This document shows positions 1,986 through 30,739 of a DNA stretch of 64,000 nt, piece by piece. The stretch lies in assembly GCF_057098645.1 (NCBI RefSeq), contig NZ_CM169472.1, one strand, 5' to 3'. The position numbers and the translations under genes were made by a program. Below the pieces are notes generated by a model. It was not told where the DNA came from, made no database searches, and saw only the letters and a list, made by a program, of their open reading frames with translations. Position 1 is the stretch's first letter; each line of letters begins with the position of its first letter.

Positions 1986-2115
1986 CAGGCACAAAAAAAC
2001 CACCCGAAGGTGGTTTCACGACACTGCTTATTGCTTTGATTTTATTCTTATCTTTCCCATGGTACCCGGAGCGGGACTTGAACCCGCACAGCGCGAACGC
2101 CGAGGGATTTTAAAT
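1986..2115. repeat. Left direct repeat (attL) of island: 130-bp copy of leuZ 3' end (56 nt) plus downstream terminator region
   Basis: 130 bp with one mismatch to 30579..30708; contains a tRNA-Leu 3' fragment (2060..2115, minus) and a hairpin/T-run copy (about 1993..2017). Confidence 0.85.
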
Positions 2116-10865: not shown

Positions 10866-11549
10866 TCAGTGCAGGCAGCACTTTTTAAATTTTTTACCAC
10901 TGCCACACTGACACGGGTCATTACGACCGGGCAGTTTTTCTGCCCCCTTCACGGGAACAGGCCGGGATGATGCCTCTGACATTCTCACCGACAACCAGTG
11001 CTGGTAAAGCGCCAGTGCCGCAGGCTGAATGAGAGTAATACTCTGTTCAAATTGAACAGGTGACATTTTCTCAACCACTGGGAAGTTCTTTTCAATACCA
11101 TGAAGGGCTATCGCCTCCAGCGAGGGACGTAAGGCCTCTGGCAAGGCTGACCAGTCATCCAGAGACCGGCCTTTCATATACCCGAAACACCACTCTTCGA
11201 CGATGGTATATGTCTTCCCCTTCACCTCACGTCCATTGAAAATCGGTTCAAACTGTTCAGGGGCCTCATACAGGCAGCCAGCGATATCGTTCATATGCTG
11301 AAAACACAGCCCCACAAAACGCGTCATCTCTTTTTCAGTGGTCCAGCGAGGGTGGTAATCACCTCGCCCCCAGATAGCACTGAGCCAGGTATTAGGGGAA
11401 ATCGTATTCGGGCCAGAGACAATCGCCGTCAGAAAGCCATCCAGCTCAGAGAAACAGAGCACAGAGTCATCATTGCCGTATTTCATCAACACCTCTTCCA
11501 GCCAGTCGATTTCCCGGTCAATCAGCGGCCCGCTTTTCGTCAGTTTCAT
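10866..11549 (-). CDS. YecA-like UPF0149 / SEC-C motif protein (island-borne paralog of core yecA)
   Basis: 227-aa ORF alignable over its whole length with YecA (1199..1864), roughly half identical by eye; same C-terminal [20 protein letters not shown] motif; start abuts the hsdS stop. Confidence 0.8.
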   Translation of the reverse strand: MKLTKSGPLIDREIDWLEEVLMKYGNDDSVLCFSELDGFLTAIVSGPNTISPNTWLSAIWGRGDYHPRWTTEKEMTRFVGLCFQHMNDIAGCLYEAPEQFEPIFNGREVKGKTYTIVEEWCFGYMKGRSLDDWSALPEALRPSLEAIALHGIEKNFPVVEKMSPVQFEQSITLIQPAALALYQHWLSVRMSEASSRPVPVKGAEKLPGRNDPCQCGSGKKFKKCCLH

Positions 11550-12189
11550 TCGGCAACCGCCTCATCGACCTTAACACGACGTTTGCCAGTCAGTAGCTGT
11601 TGCATCAGGGCTTTTTTCTCGTCTTTCAGGCAGGCGAGTTTTTTCTCCAGCGTGGAGATTTCAGCGTCGGCAGCGGAAAGGACGGCGGCGATTTTTTGTT
11701 GTTCTTTGATATCTAATGGCAACCTAAAGTCTTTCTCTTTAAGTTCTCGCATATGTCTGCTGTAACCTAAATTCGGAATATCTGTATTTGAAAGAAGATA
11801 GTATCCAAGTTTTGGTTCAAGTATTTTGCTAGTTTTTATTACTTGCGTTCCATCAGCACCGGGACAAAACACAAACTCAATCCATTTGACGCATCTTGTA
11901 TGATCGCCAAAAACAATCACAGGCACGTCCGAATAAACCTCTAAATTATTACAGTACCCAGCAATTCGACTTTGCCCTTGATCGATTATAGGGATGGAAC
12001 CTGACTGTAAATAATCGGAAGATTTGACTTGCGCCGATTTTTTATTTGCAACAATGAAAGCATTATCAAACGTTAAATATACCCACTCCCCATTAAACCT
12101 CCCCCCATTCTCATCCAGCAAGCGTTTTTGTCCGGTAAGCAATTGCTGCATCAGGGCTTTTTTCTGTTGCTGGCTGTTGGTGAGAAGCG

Positions 12190-13245
12190 GCTTTGTTGAA
12201 TAAATCAGATTTCGGGTAAGTCTCCCCCGTAGCGGGTTGTGTTTTCAGGCAATACGCACGCTTTCAGGCATACCTGCTTTCGTCATTTTGTTCAGCGCTC
12301 GTACCAGGGCCATAGCCTCCGCAACCTGACCATCGTAGTCACGCAGCGTCAGTGAACCCCCGAACAGCTGTTTTACCCGGTACATCGCCGTTTCCGCTAT
12401 CGAGCGACGGTTGTAATCTGTTGTCCATTTCCACCGCGCATTACTCCCGGTCATTCGCTGATTAGCCACTGCACGGTTACGGTCTGCATATTCACCGGGC
12501 CAGTAGCCCGCACCTTTTCGGGGAGGGATAAGCGCGCTGATTTTCTTACGCCGCAGTTCATCGTGACATAGCCGGGTATCGTAAGCGCCATCGGCGGCGG
12601 CTGACCTGATTTTCCGGTGGGTTTGCCGGATTAACCCGGGGAAGGCCTCTGAGTCCGTAACGTTGTTCAGCGACAGGTCTGCACAGATGATTTCATGTGT
12701 TTTACTGTCAACGGCGAGATGCAGCTTACGCCAGATACGGCGGCGTTCCTGGCCATGCTTTTTGACTTTCCACTCGCCTTCACCGAAGACCTTCAGCCCG
12801 GTGGAATCAATCACCAGATGTGCGATTTCACCCCGGGTGGGCGTTTTGAAACTGACATTAACCGACTTTGCCCGCCTGCTGACACAGCTGTAATCCGGGC
12901 AGCGTAGCGGAACGTTCATCAGAGAAAAAATGGAATCAATAAAGCCCTGCGCAGCGCGCAGGGTCAGCCTGAATACGCGTTTAATGACCAGCACAGTCGT
13001 GATGGCAAGGTCAGAATAGCGCTGAGGTCTGCCTCGTGAAGAAGGTGTTGCTGACTCATACCAGGCCTGAATAGCTTCATCATCCAGCCAGAAAGTTATG
13101 GAGCCACGGTTGATGAGGGCTTTATTGTAGGTGGGCCAGTTGGTGATTTTGAACTTTTGCTTTGCCACGGAACGGTCTGCGTTGTCGGGAAGATGCGTGA
13201 TCTGATCCTTCAACTCAGCAAAAGTTCGATTTATTCAACAAAGCC
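12190..13245 (-). mobile_element. IS5-family (IS903-group) insertion sequence, copy 1
   Basis: ~1057 bp; terminal inverted repeats GGCTTTGTTGAATAAATC at both ends; flanked by 9-bp target-site duplication GTGAGAAGC (12181..12189 and 13246..13254). Confidence 0.85.
12245..13213 (-). CDS. IS903-group (IS5 family) transposase
   Basis: 322-aa ORF; DDE transposase with ...LIDSTGLKVFGEGEWKVKKHG...WRKLHLAVD... region; identical protein encoded at 28742..29710. Confidence 0.88.
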   Translation of the reverse strand: MKDQITHLPDNADRSVAKQKFKITNWPTYNKALINRGSITFWLDDEAIQAWYESATPSSRGRPQRYSDLAITTVLVIKRVFRLTLRAAQGFIDSIFSLMNVPLRCPDYSCVSRRAKSVNVSFKTPTRGEIAHLVIDSTGLKVFGEGEWKVKKHGQERRRIWRKLHLAVDSKTHEIICADLSLNNVTDSEAFPGLIRQTHRKIRSAAADGAYDTRLCHDELRRKKISALIPPRKGAGYWPGEYADRNRAVANQRMTGSNARWKWTTDYNRRSIAETAMYRVKQLFGGSLTLRDYDGQVAEAMALVRALNKMTKAGMPESVRIA

Positions 13246-13815
13246 GTGAGAAGCTTTTCCGTCACCGAAATCGCCTCATCCCAGGTTGACAGAATTTTAA
13301 CGATTCTCTTTTGTTCAGACAGTGGGGGGATATTAAATGGCCACTTAAACCAACTATCTAACTTAAAAATCATTTTCTCTATGTGCACACCAATGCTAGA
13401 GTGGAAGCAGGTTTGCTGGAAATATAGAGACTCCGATAGAAATTCCATATAAGGAAGATAAAAACCGGACTTCCCTGTAAGCACACAATATTCATTCGAT
13501 ACAATTGAGCCAGAAAGTTCTTTAGGTACAAGACCGCAAGCACCGTGCACAATTTGTCGTTTTGATATGAGAAAGTCGCCTTCTTTAATATAGAATTGAC
13601 TTTTTACGGAGATATCTTTTCCTTTAAGATGCTCACGTCTTATTACGCCACCTCTGGAGCGCTTTACTGTAACTAAGTCATACTCTTGATTATCTTGTAT
13701 ATATGCCTTTCTTGCCTCTATATTTAAGCACTTTTCTAATGATAACTTTTGCCATCCTGTAGGTAGCATTCCAAGGATCGGTTTTCCAGCTTTAACGCTC
13801 ACTGGGTAAAGCGAA

Positions 13816-15339
13816 TCACGAGCCATAACCCAACTCCTTCAAATACCCTGCCATCTCAACTTCCAGCTTCGCCAGTTCCACCTTCAGTTGCTCACGCTCT
13901 GCTCGCACCGCCACCAGGTCAATCTCATCCTCTTCTTCAAAGGTATCGACATAGCGCGGAATATTGAGGTTGTAATCGTTGTCCTGAATTTCCTTCAGGC
14001 TGGCAAGATAGGCGTATTTCTCGACGTTATCGCCATCACGGTAGGTCTTGACGATTTTCTTAATGTTTTCTTCGCTAAGCTGGTTCTGGTTTTTACCTGC
14101 CTTGAATTCACGGCTGGCATCGATAAACAGCACCTTGTCATCAACTTTCTACTTTTTGAAAATCAGAATCGCAGCCGGAATCCCCGTACCGTAGAACAGT
14201 TTTTCCGGCAGACCAATTACCGCATCCAGCAAATTTTCGTCGATCAGTTTCTGGCGAATTTTACCTTCGCTGGAGCCACGGAAAAGCACACCGTGTGGCA
14301 CAACTACGCCCATACGGCCAGTTCCCGGTTTCAGGGTTTCGATCATATGCGAGATAAAAGCGTAATCTCCTTTAGTCTTCGGCGGTACACCGCGACGAAA
14401 ACGGCCAAACTTATCGTTCTCGGCCTCGTCATGGCCCCACTTATCGAGGCTGAACGGTGGGTTAGCGGTCACGATATCAAACAGCATCAGGTCGCCATTT
14501 TTATCGAGCAGCTTCGGGTTACGAATGGTATCGCCCCACTCGATTTTATGGTTGTCTTCCCCGTGCAGGAACATATTCATTTTCGCCAGCGACCACGTAG
14601 AACCGATCGCTTCCTGACCGAACAAGGCATAGTTACGACTATCATGCCCGGAGACAATTTTACGCCCACACTTCATCAATAATGAACCGGAACCACAGGC
14701 TGGATCGCAGATGGTATCACCCGGTTGCGGATCGAGCAGTTCTGCAATCAGGTCCGAAACTTCCGGCGGGGTATAGAACTCCCCGGCTTTCTGCCCACCG
14801 CTGGCGGCAAAGTTTTTGATCAGGTATTCGTAAGCATTGCCGATAACGTCCAGCGTACCGACACGACTCGGCTTCAGGTTGAGATCTTCACCGGCGAAGT
14901 CTTCCAGTAGCTGACGCAGTATGGTGTTTTTCTGTTTTTCTTCGCCAAGACGATCGGTGTTAAACGAAATATCCTGGAACACGCTTTTCCCGGCATCTTT
15001 CAGTTTGGTTCCGTTGGCTTCTTCGATTGCATGCAGAGCCTGATCGATACGCTCACCGTTACCCAGCTCATGGCGGCGTTCGTACAGCGCATAAAAGCTG
15101 GCACTTTTTGGCAGTACAAAACGCTCGTTGGCCATCATCGCTTCAATCAGTTCCGGCGCATCGCCATACTGTTCTTTGTATTCGTCATAGTGATCCTGCC
15201 AGACATCTGAAATGTACTTGAGGAACAGCATGGTAAGGATAAAGTCTTTATAGGTATCAGCACTGATGGTGCCACGGAACGTATCACACGCGGCCCACAG
15301 GGCTTTGTTGATCGTGTCCTGACTGATTTTGTCGTTCAT
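13816..15339 (-). pseudogene. hsdM: Type I R-M methyltransferase subunit hsdM with in-frame amber stop
   Basis: ORFs 14149..15339 (396 aa, N6-adenine MTase motifs incl. ...IVTANPPFS...) and 13816..14133 (105 aa) are in the same frame, separated by a TAG at 14149..14151. Confidence 0.75.
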
Positions 15340-23970: not shown

Positions 23971-24594
23971 AGTGCTCCTGGATTTTCTCTTTCTGGACAT
24001 TGACGTCTCCACTGGTTTAAACACGGCAATGGAGACTGTGGTGAAAAGAGTTAATTCCCGGAGTGACTGGCAGGATGCCAATCAATGATCGGAAGCATGC
24101 CAAATCGTGATCGATTGTGATGCCAAACTGTGATCGGAGATGGATGCCAAATCATGATCGATTCGAATGCCAAACTGCGATCGATTCAGATGCCATTTTG
24201 CAGCCGGGGGGGACGAACTCCCGGCATTTTTTCGGAGTTAACTATGAGCAATAATTTGCAGGACATCCTCGCTGCCGCATCGGGGTATCAGTCCGTGACT
24301 TCAGAGCCAGCGCTCAATCTTAAAAGACCTAAAACGCTTGATGATTATCCTGTGATACCACCTGCATCAAAAAAAGTATCTGTTATTTCAAGTGACCTGA
24401 CACTCCATATCGGTTTTGATACCGAATATGTTTTCAATCCTGAAACACAACAGAATGATATTCTGTCATATCAGAGTTATGTTGTCTTACCCGATAATAC
24501 AGGTATATCGAACATTATCTATCCACCTGACTCACAGAAAAAATCCCGGCTGTCTTTTAAGAACTTTCTCTGTCAAACGATTATGGATTTGCCC

Positions 24595-25500
24595 CTATAT
24601 TTCCAGACATCTGTTATCACTTAACCCATTACAAGCCCGCTGCCGCAGATATTCCCGTGGCGAGCGATAACCCAGCGCACTATGCGGATGCCATTCGTTA
24701 TAATGCTCGAACGCCTCTGCAAGGTTCTTTGCTGCCGTTAACCCGTCTGGTTTGGGCATGATACTGATGTAGTCACGCTTTATCGTTTTCACGAAGCTCT
24801 CTGCTATTCCGTTACTCTCCGGACTCCGCACCGCCGTGTTCTTCGGTTCAAGTCCCAACATCCGGGCGAACTGGCGTGTTTCATTAGCCCGGTAGCATGA
24901 ACCATTATCCGTCAGCCACTCCACTGGAGACGACGGAAGATCGTTGCCGAAGCGGCGTTCCACCGCTCCCAGCATGACGTCCTGTACTGTTTCACTGTTG
25001 AAGCCGCCGGTAGTCACCGCCCAGTGCAGTGCCTCACGATCACAGCAGTCCAGCGCGAACGTGACACGCAGTCTCTCTCCGTTATCACAGCAGAACTCGA
25101 ACCCGTCAGAGCACCATCGCTGATTGCTTTCTTTCACGGCCACTCTGCCTGTATGTGCCCGTTTCGATGGCGGTACAGCAGGTTTTCGCTCAAGCAACAG
25201 CGCATTCTGGCGCATGATCCGGTAAACACGTTTGGCATTGATCGCAGGCATACCATCAAGTTCTGCCTGTCTGCGAAGCAGCGCCCATACCCGACGATAA
25301 CCATACGTGGGCAGCTCTCCGATAACATGGTGTATACGGAGAAGCACATCCGTATCATCAGTGTGACGACTGCGGCGGCCATCCATCCAGTCATCGGTTC
25401 GTCTGAGAATGACGTGCAACTGCGCACGCGACACCCGGAGACAACGGCTGACTAAGCTTACTCCCCATCCCCGGGCAATAAGGGCGCGTGCGCTATCCAC
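24595..25500 (-). CDS. insD: IS2 transposase OrfB (InsD)
   Basis: 301-aa [24 protein letters not shown]... with DDE integrase core; overlaps insC as expected for a frameshift-fusion transposase. Confidence 0.85.
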
Positions 25501-25823
25501 TTTTTTGCCCGTCCATATTCAACGGCTTCTTTGAGGAGTTCATTTTCCATCGTTTTCTTGCCGAGCAGGCGCTGGAGTTCTTTAATCTGCTTCATGGCGG
25601 CAGCAAGTTCAGAGGCAGGAACAACCTGTTCTCCGGCGGCCACAGCAGTAAGACTTCCTTCCTGGTATTGCTTACGCCAGAGAAATAACTGGCTGGCTGC
25701 TACACCATGTTGCCGGGCAACGAGGGAGACCGTCATCCCCGGTTCAAAGCTCTGCTGAACAATTGCGATCTTTTCCTGTGTGGTACGCCGTCTGCGTTTC
25801 TCCGGCCCTAAGACATCAATCAT
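25458..25823 (-). CDS. insC: IS2 transposase OrfA (InsC)
   Basis: Starts [26 protein letters not shown]..., the InsC sequence as recalled; taken from the internal Met of ORF 25458..25868. Confidence 0.85.
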
Positions 25824-27974
25824 CTGTTCTCCAATGACTAGTCTAAAAACTAGTATTAAGACTATCACTTATTTAAGTGATACTGGTTGTCTGGAGATTC
25901 AGGGGGCCAGTCTAGATTACACCGCTTCTTGAAACGGGTGTGATTACAAAATGGCCCGGTATTATTAATATATATGCGCATTTCATTCGTGCGGATATCA
26001 CCTCCTTTGCCAATTTCTGGTCAGACTACAAAATTCTTCTGAAAGGAATACGCGGTACTGTCAGCAGCTTCAAAAATCGTTACGGTATCGATTTTGATGA
26101 ACAGCAGGAACGTCGCGTAAAGACTGAACAGATAATGTTTGACAAACGAACTTCCCCTCCGCGTTGCAGTAACGTAGCTTTCATCGATACACTGCTTATC
26201 ACTCCCGGGGGTATGGGTCTGGCTGAATGTGGTGAATTACTGGGTCTTCCCAAACTGACCATTCCTGCACCTTATTCCATAACCAATATGCGTGAATATC
26301 TTCTGGGCGACAGAGCAGGGTTTGAAGCCTATGCTCTGCGGGATGCCGAGATTGCGGTTCGTTATGCTTTACAGGTTCGCAATTTTTGCGCCCGGGAGCT
26401 GATGATTGATCGTGTCCCCGCCACCATCGGGGCGATGGCAGTTTCACGGTTCACCAAAACACTTAAAGAAAACAATATGTCTCCTGAAGTCTGCCTTGGG
26501 ACACACATTAAAACCCGTGAACTCTGGCTCACGGAGAAACAGGCATTCCGGACGATTAAAAACCCCGCCAGTGTTCCTTCAAGAGAGCTGTTTGAAACGT
26601 TCCCGATCAACTGTTACCACGGCGGACGCAATGAGTGTTTTATGATGGGGGTTACACCGTCTGATCACTGGTATGACTACGATCTGGCTGGAGCGTATAC
26701 CACCGGGCTATTAGATATCCTCATACCCGATTACGGAAACATCCGCCTCAGTAAAAATCCGGACGATTACTGTGGGCATGTAATGGGATTTGCGTTTGTC
26801 ACATTTCAGTTCCCGGAATCAGTTCCCTATCCCAGCCTGCCGGTTCGGACCGATCAATATGGGTTATTCTTTCCATTAAGTGGCGAATCATGGGCAACGG
26901 CACCTGAAATCGAACTTGCTCTGTCGCTCGGGGCAGAGATGACGATCCATAATGGGATCATCGTCCCCTGGATCTGTGACACCTCCCCACATAACAGCGA
27001 ATCAACATCGGTGTTTCTTCCCTTTGTTCAACAGGTCCGTGAGAACCGTAATCGCCATATTAAAGGTTCTCTGGAGGAGAAATTCTGGAAAGAAATTGGC
27101 AACTCGCTTTATGGCAAACTTGCTCAGGGCCTTCGCGCCAAAACCGCCTTTGATACTGCCCGTGGATTAAACAGATCCCTCCCACCATCATCGGTTACTC
27201 AGCCATTCTTTGCTGCGCATGTGACGGGATTTATCCGCGCCGTTGTCGGGGAACTCATGAATGCTTTGCCTTCTGATTCATCGGTTGTCAGCGTCACAAC
27301 CGATGGCTTTTTGACAAATTGCCCACTTAACAAGATAAACATGAGCGGTCCACTGTCTTCCCGCTTCCAGTCGCTGTGCGATATTGTTGATCCGGGTTCA
27401 TCAATGTTGACATGTAAGCATGAGGTCAGCCAGCTTATCGCCATGAAAACCCGGGGGCAGTTAACCTATAGAGCTATTCAGGGAAAACCTGTTGTTCATG
27501 CCAGGGCTGGCGTCAAACCTCCTGCCGATATTCCACGCAGTGACTATAACGACTATATGGTAGATCTTTACCTTAATCGTTTACCCGGTCAGACGTTATC
27601 CCGAAGTACGTTGATATCAACGCGTGAGATGTGGCTGTCGGAAAGCGATCTGGTATCCCGGGAACAGGATATCCGTCTTAATCTGGAATTCGATTTCAAA
27701 CGCCAGCCCGTACAGCCCGCCATGAATGAAGGGCATTTACTGATGTCTTCCCGCCCATGGGATAATATGGAAGAGGCTCTGCAGCAACGCTCTCTTTTCG
27801 ACGACTGGCGGCAAACGCATACACTGAAGACCCTGGCTGACTGGGATGACTGGTGTGATTTTCTCTATTGCCGGACGGTGTTTTCTGATATGAAACTAAA
27901 AGTCGGAAGCAAACGTAGTGATGATATTTTAGTCAGACTATTTCTCCGGGCGCTGACTCAGTGCCAATGGGGGC

Positions 27975-28523
27975 TTATGCTGAAAGATAAAAAAAGTTAT
28001 TCCTGTAAAGAGGTTGCTGAATGGCTGACGTCAGAAGGCTATTCAGTAACATGTCAAAAAGCACCTGCTGGATCTCCCGGGCCCGAAGGTCGCAGTAACG
28101 TATCTTCCCCAGACGAGGTTCAATGTATTGCGTGAAACGCTGAACATCCTTATCCCAGGACTTTTTATGGCGTTTGATGAACGGAACATAGGTCTGGTGA
28201 AAAAACTCACTAAGTGTTGGCATCGCACGATAATTATCGCGTTCTGCTTTAGGGTCATTTCCCAGTGCAATCGCCTCCTTGTGACGACGAGCTATCTGAC
28301 GGGCTGTCCCCACATCGATTTCAGGGAATCTGCCAATACTGATACTTTTTTTGGTACCGTGGAATGTGTAGCGCAGGAGGAAACGTTTGTTACCCGTTCG
28401 ACCTGAGAGACATTTGAGGCCTATGACCTCGGTATCTGATACCTCAAGCTCTGTAGATCGGGTATCTGTGTTTGCCGGAAGGGCTTTGATGGATGAATTG
28501 GTGAATCGGAAGGATTTTTGCAT
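27975..28523 (-). pseudogene. Truncated P4-type integrase (N-terminal arm-binding domain only)
   Basis: ORF 27975..28553; MQKSFRFTNSSIKALP...GTARQIARRHKEAIALGNDP resembles the DUF4102 arm-binding N-terminus of P4-family integrases; no catalytic domain; 3' part overlaps the piPolB 3' end on the opposite strand. Confidence 0.5.
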
Positions 28524-28709
28524 ATTTATCCTCATGTATCTGATTGATATCATGAAAATAATATATATCTGAAGGTGTTTTTATTACGGGGCAGGATTGA
28601 AGAATGGAAAAGCTATTAGACGCGTACAAACGGATATTGCAGGAAGTTAACGCCCAGTCATTTAACCTGAATGAGGATAAATACTCAGGCGTCTTTTTAC
28701 CCGTGCCGT

Positions 28710-29766
28710 GGCTTTGTTGAATAAATCGAACTTTTGCTGAGTTGAAGGATCAGATCACGCATCTTCCCGACAACGCAGACCGTTCCGTGGCAAAGCAAAA
28801 GTTCAAAATCACCAACTGGCCCACCTACAATAAAGCCCTCATCAACCGTGGCTCCATAACTTTCTGGCTGGATGATGAAGCTATTCAGGCCTGGTATGAG
28901 TCAGCAACACCTTCTTCACGAGGCAGACCTCAGCGCTATTCTGACCTTGCCATCACGACTGTGCTGGTCATTAAACGCGTATTCAGGCTGACCCTGCGCG
29001 CTGCGCAGGGCTTTATTGATTCCATTTTTTCTCTGATGAACGTTCCGCTACGCTGCCCGGATTACAGCTGTGTCAGCAGGCGGGCAAAGTCGGTTAATGT
29101 CAGTTTCAAAACGCCCACCCGGGGTGAAATCGCACATCTGGTGATTGATTCCACCGGGCTGAAGGTCTTCGGTGAAGGCGAGTGGAAAGTCAAAAAGCAT
29201 GGCCAGGAACGCCGCCGTATCTGGCGTAAGCTGCATCTCGCCGTTGACAGTAAAACACATGAAATCATCTGTGCAGACCTGTCGCTGAACAACGTTACGG
29301 ACTCAGAGGCCTTCCCCGGGTTAATCCGGCAAACCCACCGGAAAATCAGGTCAGCCGCCGCCGATGGCGCTTACGATACCCGGCTATGTCACGATGAACT
29401 GCGGCGTAAGAAAATCAGCGCGCTTATCCCTCCCCGAAAAGGTGCGGGCTACTGGCCCGGTGAATATGCAGACCGTAACCGTGCAGTGGCTAATCAGCGA
29501 ATGACCGGGAGTAATGCGCGGTGGAAATGGACAACAGATTACAACCGTCGCTCGATAGCGGAAACGGCGATGTACCGGGTAAAACAGCTGTTCGGGGGTT
29601 CACTGACGCTGCGTGACTACGATGGTCAGGTTGCGGAGGCTATGGCCCTGGTACGAGCGCTGAACAAAATGACGAAAGCAGGTATGCCTGAAAGCGTGCG
29701 TATTGCCTGAAAACACAACCCGCTACGGGGGAGACTTACCCGAAATCTGATTTATTCAACAAAGCC
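28710..29766 (+). mobile_element. IS5-family (IS903-group) insertion sequence, copy 2
   Basis: Same ends as copy 1 (GGCTTTGTTGAATAAATC inverted repeats), inverted relative to copy 1; flanked by 9-bp target duplication CCGTGCCGT (28701..28709 and 29767..29775). Confidence 0.85.
28742..29710 (+). CDS. IS903-group (IS5 family) transposase
   Basis: 322-aa ORF identical in sequence to the one at 12245..13213. Confidence 0.88.
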   Translation: MKDQITHLPDNADRSVAKQKFKITNWPTYNKALINRGSITFWLDDEAIQAWYESATPSSRGRPQRYSDLAITTVLVIKRVFRLTLRAAQGFIDSIFSLMNVPLRCPDYSCVSRRAKSVNVSFKTPTRGEIAHLVIDSTGLKVFGEGEWKVKKHGQERRRIWRKLHLAVDSKTHEIICADLSLNNVTDSEAFPGLIRQTHRKIRSAAADGAYDTRLCHDELRRKKISALIPPRKGAGYWPGEYADRNRAVANQRMTGSNARWKWTTDYNRRSIAETAMYRVKQLFGGSLTLRDYDGQVAEAMALVRALNKMTKAGMPESVRIA

Positions 29767-30578
29767 CCGTGCCGTTTGAAGAATACTGGCATTCACCGAT
29801 AAAAATCATGCTGGTTGGACGTGAAACCGCAGGCTGGAATACGCTGAATGGTAAGAATACGATATCACGGGTGTTGGGACTTATACCTGACGTCACCATC
29901 GGGCAAGTGGTTGAAGAAGCTGTAGATCGTTACAGGAAACATCTTCCGGTACAAAATTATGGCACCGCCAACCTCAAATCACGTAGCCGCTTCACGCAAT
30001 ATCATTTCAGGCTGGCCCGGGAGCTTAATATTCTTCCCCAGGCAATCGTGTATGCCAATCTACTGGCGTGGGATTACGACGGACTGACCCCTCTCAATCG
30101 CCCTCAAAATGAAGTGCAGGAAGTCATATTAGCCTCGCTGAAGCTACTGGCGGTACAAATTAAACACCTTGAGCCTGATTTCATCATCTTTGCATCTGGA
30201 GCCCGGAGAACAGACTACATCATAAAACAGGTGCTTACTGAGCTAGGCGGCTATGAGACTTCTTCAGTCATTCCGGGGAAGCTGTGGGAGTTCAAAACAG
30301 GTAATACAATCTGTTTCAGAATTGCCCATCCAAGGGCTATGCGCGGACACCAGAAGTACAGAGATGAGGTGATTGCACGAATTAAGCAACTTTGTACTCA
30401 GGGTGGCTAGAGCATTACAGCTTGCTCAGCAGGGCCCCTTCCCGGAAGAGTACCGGAAAACAGGCAAAGCAACCTGGTTCTCTATGCTGGAGGCGACACG
30501 TTCGATTCGGCATTGCCAGGCTGGAGATTGCAGCTCATTGCACCCCGTGAGCACAGGATATGCACAGGACATGAATTT

Positions 30579-30708
30579 CAGGCACAAAAAAACCACCCGG
30601 AGGTGGTTTCACGACACTGCTTATTGCTTTGATTTTATTCTTATCTTTCCCATGGTACCCGGAGCGGGACTTGAACCCGCACAGCGCGAACGCCGAGGGA
30701 TTTTAAAT
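30579..30708. repeat. Right direct repeat (attR): leuZ 3' end plus downstream terminator region
   Basis: 130 bp matching 1986..2115 with one mismatch; overlaps the intact tRNA-Leu 3' 56 nt. Confidence 0.85.
30586..30612 (-). terminator. Rho-independent terminator of the glyW-cysT-leuZ tRNA operon
   Basis: Minus-strand hairpin aaccacc-tccg-ggtggtt followed by a T7 run immediately 3' of leuZ. Confidence 0.7.
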
Positions 30709-30739
30709 CCCTTGTGTCTACCGATTCCACCATCCGGGC
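30653..30739 (-). tRNA. leuZ: tRNA-Leu (anticodon UAA)
   Basis: 87-nt sequence GCCCGGATGGTGGAATCGGTAG...CTCCGGGTACCA on the minus strand; anticodon loop TTTAAAA; long variable arm; encoded CCA. Confidence 0.9.

Follow-up and report, generated by a model that had tools for sequence, protein, structure and literature searches.

What gene stood at the right end of the pipolin in a 64,000-nucleotide stretch of contig NZ_CM169472.1 (NCBI RefSeq assembly GCF_057098645.1; hereafter the window), and what became of it when an insertion sequence (IS) entered it? The gene lies beside attR, the right attachment site of this mobile element, and resembles genes for uracil-DNA glycosylases (UDGs). Very probably, the region is the right-end 'UDG' gene of an Escherichia coli pipolin inserted at tRNA-Leu, and IS903B inactivated it by transposing into it recently.

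The UDG-like gene begins on the plus strand with the ATG at 28604, which has an AGGA Shine-Dalgarno sequence 7 nt upstream and matches the conserved N-terminus of 36 homologues. Its 5′ fragment (28604..28709) comprises codons 1-35 plus one nucleotide; the frame then runs through three codons inside the IS and stops, leaving an upstream open reading frame (ORF) of 38 amino acids (28604..28720, plus strand). The IS itself occupies 28710..29766 on the plus strand (1057 bp by a script check of the sequence), ends in perfect 18-bp terminal inverted repeats GGCTTTGTTGAATAAATC (28710..28727 and 29749..29766), and is flanked by two copies of the 9-bp target-site duplication CCGTGCCGT, the left one at 28701..28709, corresponding to nucleotides 98-106 of the intact gene, and the right one at 29767..29775. 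By chance, nine bases at a given position would match exactly with a probability of about 4e-6, and a 9-bp duplication is typical of IS903B. The transposase ORF (28742..29710, plus strand) carries DDE domains (Pfam DDE_Tnp_1_5 and DDE_Tnp_1) and scores 357 bits against the NCBIfam IS5-family model NF033579, which has a cut-off of 140. The element's size of about 1057 bp, its 18-bp inverted repeats, the 9-bp duplication, and the single IS5-family DDE transposase are characters of the IS903 group; along all 1057 bp it matches annotated IS903B copies on E. coli chromosomes and plasmids at 100% identity and, showing no difference from these reference copies, is a standard one.

Beyond the right duplicate, the 3′ fragment (29776..30410, plus strand) extends from the rest of codon 36 to the stop codon and holds motif A (G50-R-E52-T-A-G-W56), F108, N130, and motif B (H220-P221). 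When the IS and one duplicate are removed, 28604..28709 and 29776..30410 join into a 741-nt in-frame ORF with a stop codon, encoding 246 amino acids, into which IS903B had inserted after nucleotide 106. A preliminary description of this DNA had proposed that an ATG at 28604 reads 35 codons into the IS, that the second IS903-group copy in the window splits the gene with a 9-bp duplication, and that the frame continues into ORF 29769..30410 once the IS and one duplicate are taken out. All coordinates and numbers of that observation were found correct by script, the 1057-bp IS903B is indeed flanked by CCGTGCCGT, and the restored 741 nt include the ORF in question. No complete E. coli genome in the collection searched carries this IS junction, from which it follows that the insertion is a peculiarity of this strain or lineage.

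At least 25 complete E. coli genomes, many of them O145:H28, contain an intact gene that is 100% identical to the restored 741 nt and is annotated as 'hypothetical protein' (WP_022581686.1); of 5426 complete E. coli genomes, 531 carry the gene. In the O145:H28 strain RM9872, as in others, it lies between a truncated integrase and tRNA-Leu, adjoining a 'DNA-directed DNA polymerase' gene (piPolB), and the window matches this locus with 99.9-100% identity on both sides of IS903B. The element in the window has the features of a pipolin, namely a piPolB gene, direct att repeats, and integration at a tRNA gene: attL (1986..2114) and attR (30579..30707) are 129-bp direct repeats of each other with one mismatch, and attR overlaps the 3′ part of the integration target, the tRNA-Leu(UAA) gene (30653..30739, minus strand). 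The UDG-like gene ends 168 bp before attR. A 'Uracil-DNA glycosylase' with Q96YD0 as its best HHpred match has been described from 87 of 92 (95%) E. coli pipolins (Flament-Simon et al. 2020, PMC7385651), where it was placed at the right end, syntenic with the integrase (PMC7385651). The window gene is this published pipolin 'UDG', group_1 of Flament-Simon et al. 2020 (PMC7385651), and is thus an already known gene: after removal of the IS it is 100% identical at the nucleotide level, it occupies the same right-end position between integrase and attR/tRNA-Leu, and the published annotation rests on the same remote match to the S. tokodaii UDG that is discussed below (PMC7385651). It differs from the published gene in being interrupted by IS903B after codon 35. 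The claim of the preliminary description that a core pipolin gene lies beside attR is borne out by the 87 of 92 pipolins with this gene at the right end (PMC7385651) and by the distance of 168 bp to attR.

An independent 5′ truncation of the same gene was seen in three other E. coli strains, IR53017 (locus L062, 3995..4636), CE0011b (locus L064, 3001..3642), and 20AR0192 (H73). These truncations adjoin an IS3-family element, piPolB and the integrase have been lost, and homology resumes at nucleotides 100-106, a few bases from the IS903B site of the window. The shared break region at nucleotides 100-106 is either a coincidence or a locally favoured target.

The insertion leaves two pieces, and whether either could serve the cell depends on what the second has kept. 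The downstream ORF (29769..30410, plus strand) would encode 213 amino acids from a GTG start inside the duplication and retains motifs A and B, so that the split might be thought harmless and a working protein still made from it. This is highly improbable. Missing from the 213-residue product are residues 1-35, with the conserved S28-G29-x-F31 segment and nine positions that do not vary among 37 relatives (L4, Y8, F20, D25, Y27, S28, G29, F31, and L32), and 36 of 36 aligned homologues start at the upstream Met. The ORF has also been cut off from the promoter side and from a ribosome-binding site: no Shine-Dalgarno sequence precedes the GTG, and a promoter and terminator scan of the region returned counts at shuffle level, with no promoter-like site above background. 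Since the 5′ piece yields a peptide of 38 amino acids and the 3′ ORF has neither a ribosome-binding site nor residues 1-35, the gene is inactivated, in agreement with the earlier proposal that an IS had knocked out a core gene. As nothing follows the gene on its strand up to attR, no polar effect is expected. There is nothing unusual in a common IS landing in a known accessory gene of a pipolin that had already decayed.

The nature of the intact product is less readily read from its sequence. The restored 246-residue protein has no match at E<=10 in Pfam or NCBIfam, and none in PADLOC or among PDB sequences; a profile of 37 close relatives likewise found nothing among PDB sequences. In PHROGs, the single match is phrog_29550, a family of unknown function. 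The preliminary description had offered a direct hidden Markov model (HMM) search of the 246-residue protein against UDG models as the deciding check, and its empty outcome, taken as a refutation, would have discarded a correct idea. The relationship emerges from a broader sample. A search of the family profile against 1.8 billion representatives recovered 474 clusters at 50% identity (E<=1e-3), and 85 relatives from these clusters, down to 24% identity, were placed in a broad alignment. The resulting profile has a sole significant match among PDB sequences, the S. tokodaii UDG 4zbx, at E 1.4e-6, with N130 aligned to N82 and H-P aligned to H-P. Individually, 40 of the 85 relatives match the Pfam UDG family PF03167 at E<=0.1, and no Pfam family besides UDG recurs in more than two of them. 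Among ten relatives examined singly, the two PF03167 alignments that reach the N-terminal end of the profile start at motif A. A chance ORF was also considered and rejected, given the 474 clusters at 50% identity and the conserved start and length.

These results support placing the 246-residue protein in the UDG superfamily by fold and transitive homology, and in none of its curated families. In the structure model it has the alpha/beta fold with a central parallel sheet that is shared with families 1-6, together with a motif A bearing a polar residue of the water-activating kind and a motif B bearing the conserved His; a PF03167 match at gathering score is lacking for the 246-residue protein. 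The resemblance to the superfamily that had been suspected from the sequence thus holds, on the strength of the 85-relative profile (E 1.4e-6 to the S. tokodaii UDG) and the weak PF03167 matches of 40 of the 85 relatives. The two motifs picked out at that stage also proved to be the expected ones, motif A after strand 1 and the H-P of motif B, and they hold the most conserved residues of the family, G50, E52, W56, H220, and P221.

Conservation across the 85 relatives is close to complete at G50 (85/85), E52 (84/85), W56 (84/85), S156 (85/85), R217 (84/85), H220 (84/85), and P221 (84/85), with N130 in 82 and F108 in 78 of them. In the structure model, G50-R-E52 follows the strand 46-50, N130 ends the strand 126-130, and H220-P221 follows the strand 213-218. 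The water-activating residue of motif A in the UDG superfamily is Asp in family 1 and Asn in families 2 and 3. The positions of E52, N130, and H220 are presumably those of the water-activating residue, the base-reading Asn, and the leaving-group His of motif B. By this comparison, the intact 246-residue protein would be a monofunctional DNA glycosylase with a UDG fold that flips a base into its pocket, where E52, in the loop after strand 1 (G-x-E), would activate water. F108, as the candidate stacking aromatic, would lie against the base, whose edge would be recognised by N130 at the end of strand 2; the leaving base would be stabilised by H220 of the H-P motif. Within the superfamily, the protein would form part of a distinct clade that lacks an iron-sulfur (Fe-S) cluster and comprises about 470 clusters at 50% identity.

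Several points weigh against an inactivated UDG-fold glycosylase as the reading of this gene. The 246-residue protein itself has no significant match to any curated UDG model, and the best PF03167 score among the ten distant relatives examined is 23.9 bits against a gathering cut-off of 24.3. The roles of E52, F108, N130, and H220 are drawn from motif position and conservation. As to the loss of function, the 213-residue ORF could in principle be expressed from an outward promoter borne by the IS, although the promoter scan showed nothing above background.

If the protein is a glycosylase, the published label of 'type-4 UDG' would suggest a canonical family-4 enzyme, of the thermostable, Fe-S type, serving to repair uracil in the pipolin DNA that piPolB synthesises. 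The sole significant PDB match of the family profile is indeed a family-4 UDG, that of S. tokodaii, the literature label and the best HHpred match Q96YD0 agree with it (PMC7385651), and the gene adjoins piPolB in the conserved core. The hallmarks of family 4 are nevertheless missing. Conservation of Cys is confined to one column (C215), and the median among close relatives is one Cys per protein, which means that the four-cysteine Fe-S site is absent. The family-4 motif A consensus is G-E-(A/G)-P-G, whereas the consensus of the present family is G-(R/K/Q)-E-T-x-G-W, read as G-R-E-T-A-G-W in the pipolin protein; neither the four conserved cysteines of a 4Fe-4S cluster nor the family-4 form of motif A is found. 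In comparison with the family-4 UDGs of T. maritima (1l9g), T. thermophilus (1ui0), and S. tokodaii (4zbx) and with UdgX, which have G-E-x-P-G as motif A, the pipolin protein lacks the Fe-S cysteines, has about 45 extra, conserved residues at its N-terminus and some 55 more inserted between motif A and F108, and shares 10-16% identity, with no Pfam match. It matches neither PF03167 nor any NCBIfam UDG model, and its relatives occur without piPolB in many genomes. Repair of uracil by a canonical family-4 enzyme is accordingly an unlikely account. Judged by its sequence, the pipolin protein is not a canonical family-4 enzyme, and the published label reflects the nearest solved structure, not membership. 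Because that widely repeated label rests on a remote match and fails two family-4 hallmarks, uracil is to be taken as a putative substrate at most.

The distribution of relatives bears on function from another side. When the closer alignment was used to scan one genome per species, 44 loci emerged, almost all of them gammaproteobacterial. Eleven of the 21 enterobacterial loci have the pipolin integrase immediately upstream on the other strand, mostly with 78-98% identity to the window protein, and four of these 11 have piPolB within 10 kb. A further 16 loci, in marine bacteria and pseudomonads, lack piPolB and have a conserved ORF of 109-113 amino acids directly upstream, overlapping the UDG-like gene or within 15 nt of it. 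At least 16 species carry a family gene without piPolB within 10 kb. Within E. coli, the 3′ two-thirds of the window piPolB allele were found in 311 genomes by the same search mode that found the UDG-like gene in 531 of 5426; the difference between 531 and 311 indicates that the right-end gene often persists where piPolB has been deleted or is divergent.

UDG folds can also serve polymerases directly, as in vaccinia virus, where D4 is a UDG-fold accessory factor of the family-B polymerase E9. By analogy, the pipolin protein could be an accessory factor for the pipolin DNA polymerase, with catalysis secondary or lost, and its position next to piPolB in E. coli pipolins would suit such a role. 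That role is very unlikely in view of the near invariance of the predicted catalytic residues across the 85 relatives, the 16 or more species without piPolB within 10 kb, and the presence of the gene in 531 E. coli genomes against 311 with the window piPolB allele.

Outside pipolins, the family is found in variable islands, and the company it keeps there sometimes includes genes of antiviral defence. Relatives in Proteus, at 50-57% identity, lie beside Mrr and a type I restriction-modification system; in marine Pseudomonas, the gene is flanked on one side by an ADP-ribosylglycohydrolase and a WYL regulator, on the opposite side by BrxR and ZorA; a Marinobacter relative lies in the context of a DUF6361-helicase cluster; and other relatives overlap a gene for an RNase T-like exonuclease or a KAP NTPase. 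A census of 150 ORFs at 16 non-pipolin loci counted four WYL regulators, three integrases, two GmrSD, and two OLD/Gabija-like ATPases, the rest being heterogeneous and partly housekeeping. These contexts fit a mobile gene sometimes linked to defence. An ADP-ribosylglycohydrolase gene was also noted adjoining the UDG-like gene and its small partner at loci L011-L014 (6358..7605), L045, L046, and L042, upstream in most of these marine loci and just downstream in L042. The predicted fold of the 109-residue upstream partner of marine gammaproteobacteria is closest to nuclease-toxin immunity proteins.

Such neighbours recall the glycosylases Brig1 (PMC11078745), Brig2 (bioRxiv 10.1101/2025.10.29.685425), and Brig3 (bioRxiv 10.64898/2026.02.25.707755), which are divergent UDG-fold enzymes that excise modified phage bases. 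Pipolins in turn have been described as defence islands (PMC11551731). The intact pipolin protein might be a glycosylase of this kind, acting against phages by excising a modified base from their DNA, in which event the IS in the window would have disabled a defence gene and not a repair gene; this is a possibility to be held tentatively, less probable than not. Brig1, Brig2, and Brig3 are precedents for it, each, like the pipolin family, having a divergent UDG fold missed by curated sequence models, and Brig1-3 and the pipolin family alike are carried on mobile or defence islands. Both brig1 and brig3 have an ADP-ribosylglycohydrolase neighbour (PMC11078745; bioRxiv 10.64898/2026.02.25.707755), a trait that Brig1 and Brig3 share with some relatives of the pipolin family. 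The description of pipolins as defence islands (PMC11551731), the Proteus relatives (50-57% identity) beside Mrr and type I restriction-modification genes, the marine pseudomonad loci between ADP-ribosylglycohydrolase/WYL and BrxR/ZorA, the overlaps with KAP NTPase or RNase T-like exonuclease genes, and the recurrence of WYL (4), integrases (3), GmrSD (2), and OLD/Gabija-like ATPases (2) across the 16 non-pipolin loci all point the same way.

Against this stand differences from the Brig proteins and the setting of the gene in E. coli. With the Brig1 sequence taken from the machine-read supplement of the Brig1 paper, no sequence relation to the family was detected (hhalign probability 0.2%, BLASTP E 2.2). 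Motif A of Brig1 and Brig3 is of the N-P type, whereas that of the pipolin family is G-x-E-T, with Glu in place of Asn-Pro. Brig1-3 are defence glycosylases, whereas any defence role of the pipolin family is putative. The E. coli gene sits in the conserved core beside the integrase and not in an exchangeable cargo module, many neighbours elsewhere are housekeeping genes, and PADLOC gave no match. As the census is heterogeneous and defence-linked families recur modestly in it, a role in defence was not adopted as the main explanation. A broader version is offered with similar reserve: the pipolin 'UDG' could be the founder of an Fe-S-free UDG clade (G-x-E-T-x-G-W...F...N...H-P, about 470 clusters) that excises a modified or non-standard base, for example from phage DNA, and that in marine gammaproteobacteria is controlled by the upstream 109-residue partner, so that the IS in the window would have removed a defence function. 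The adjacency of the family outside pipolins to modification-dependent restriction genes and WYL regulators makes a role in defence testable.

The loss of the UDG-like gene is one of several lesions in a pipolin that is decaying as a whole: IS2 splits piPolB, an integrase is truncated, and the other IS903B appears to interrupt a further gene. The IS2 copy in piPolB (24584..25914; 1331 bp) is flanked by a 5-bp duplication, GATTA, and its ORFs on the minus strand (24595..25500 and 25458..25868) match IS2 TnpB and TnpA; on both sides of it, piPolB is 100% identical to the intact piPolB of RM9872. The pipolin integrase is represented by a remnant (27975..28553, minus strand; divergent from the UDG-like gene) that retains the Arm DNA-binding N-terminal part only and is annotated as 'Arm DNA-binding domain-containing protein, missing C-terminus', and a remnant is likewise present in strain RM9872. 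In other pipolins, such as that of strain 2452 (locus L063, 7721..8920), a full integrase of 1200 nt stands at the position of the remnant. Elsewhere, DUF2787 and other core genes follow the full integrase; in the window, they are missing between piPolB and the UDG-like gene.

The first IS903B copy (12189..13245, minus strand) is 100% identical to the second over 1057 positions, inverted, and lies between the two copies of a 9-bp duplication of its own, GTGAGAAGC, at 12180..12188 and 13246..13254. That the copies are identical and each has kept its own duplication indicates two separate, recent insertions without later recombination between the copies. Insertion sequences have broken piPolB, the UDG-like gene, and apparently a third gene, and one integrase is truncated; with this damage, this copy of the pipolin is unlikely to replicate or to use the UDG-like enzyme. 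For the window itself the finding matters little, documenting a degenerate pipolin copy and the ordinary decay of a mobile element. The two IS903B copies bracket 15.5 kb and bear no sign of mutual recombination. Neither half of the gene around the first copy matches NCBIfam; that copy appears to split another pipolin gene, with flanking ORFs at 11546..12151 and 13215..13826 on the minus strand.
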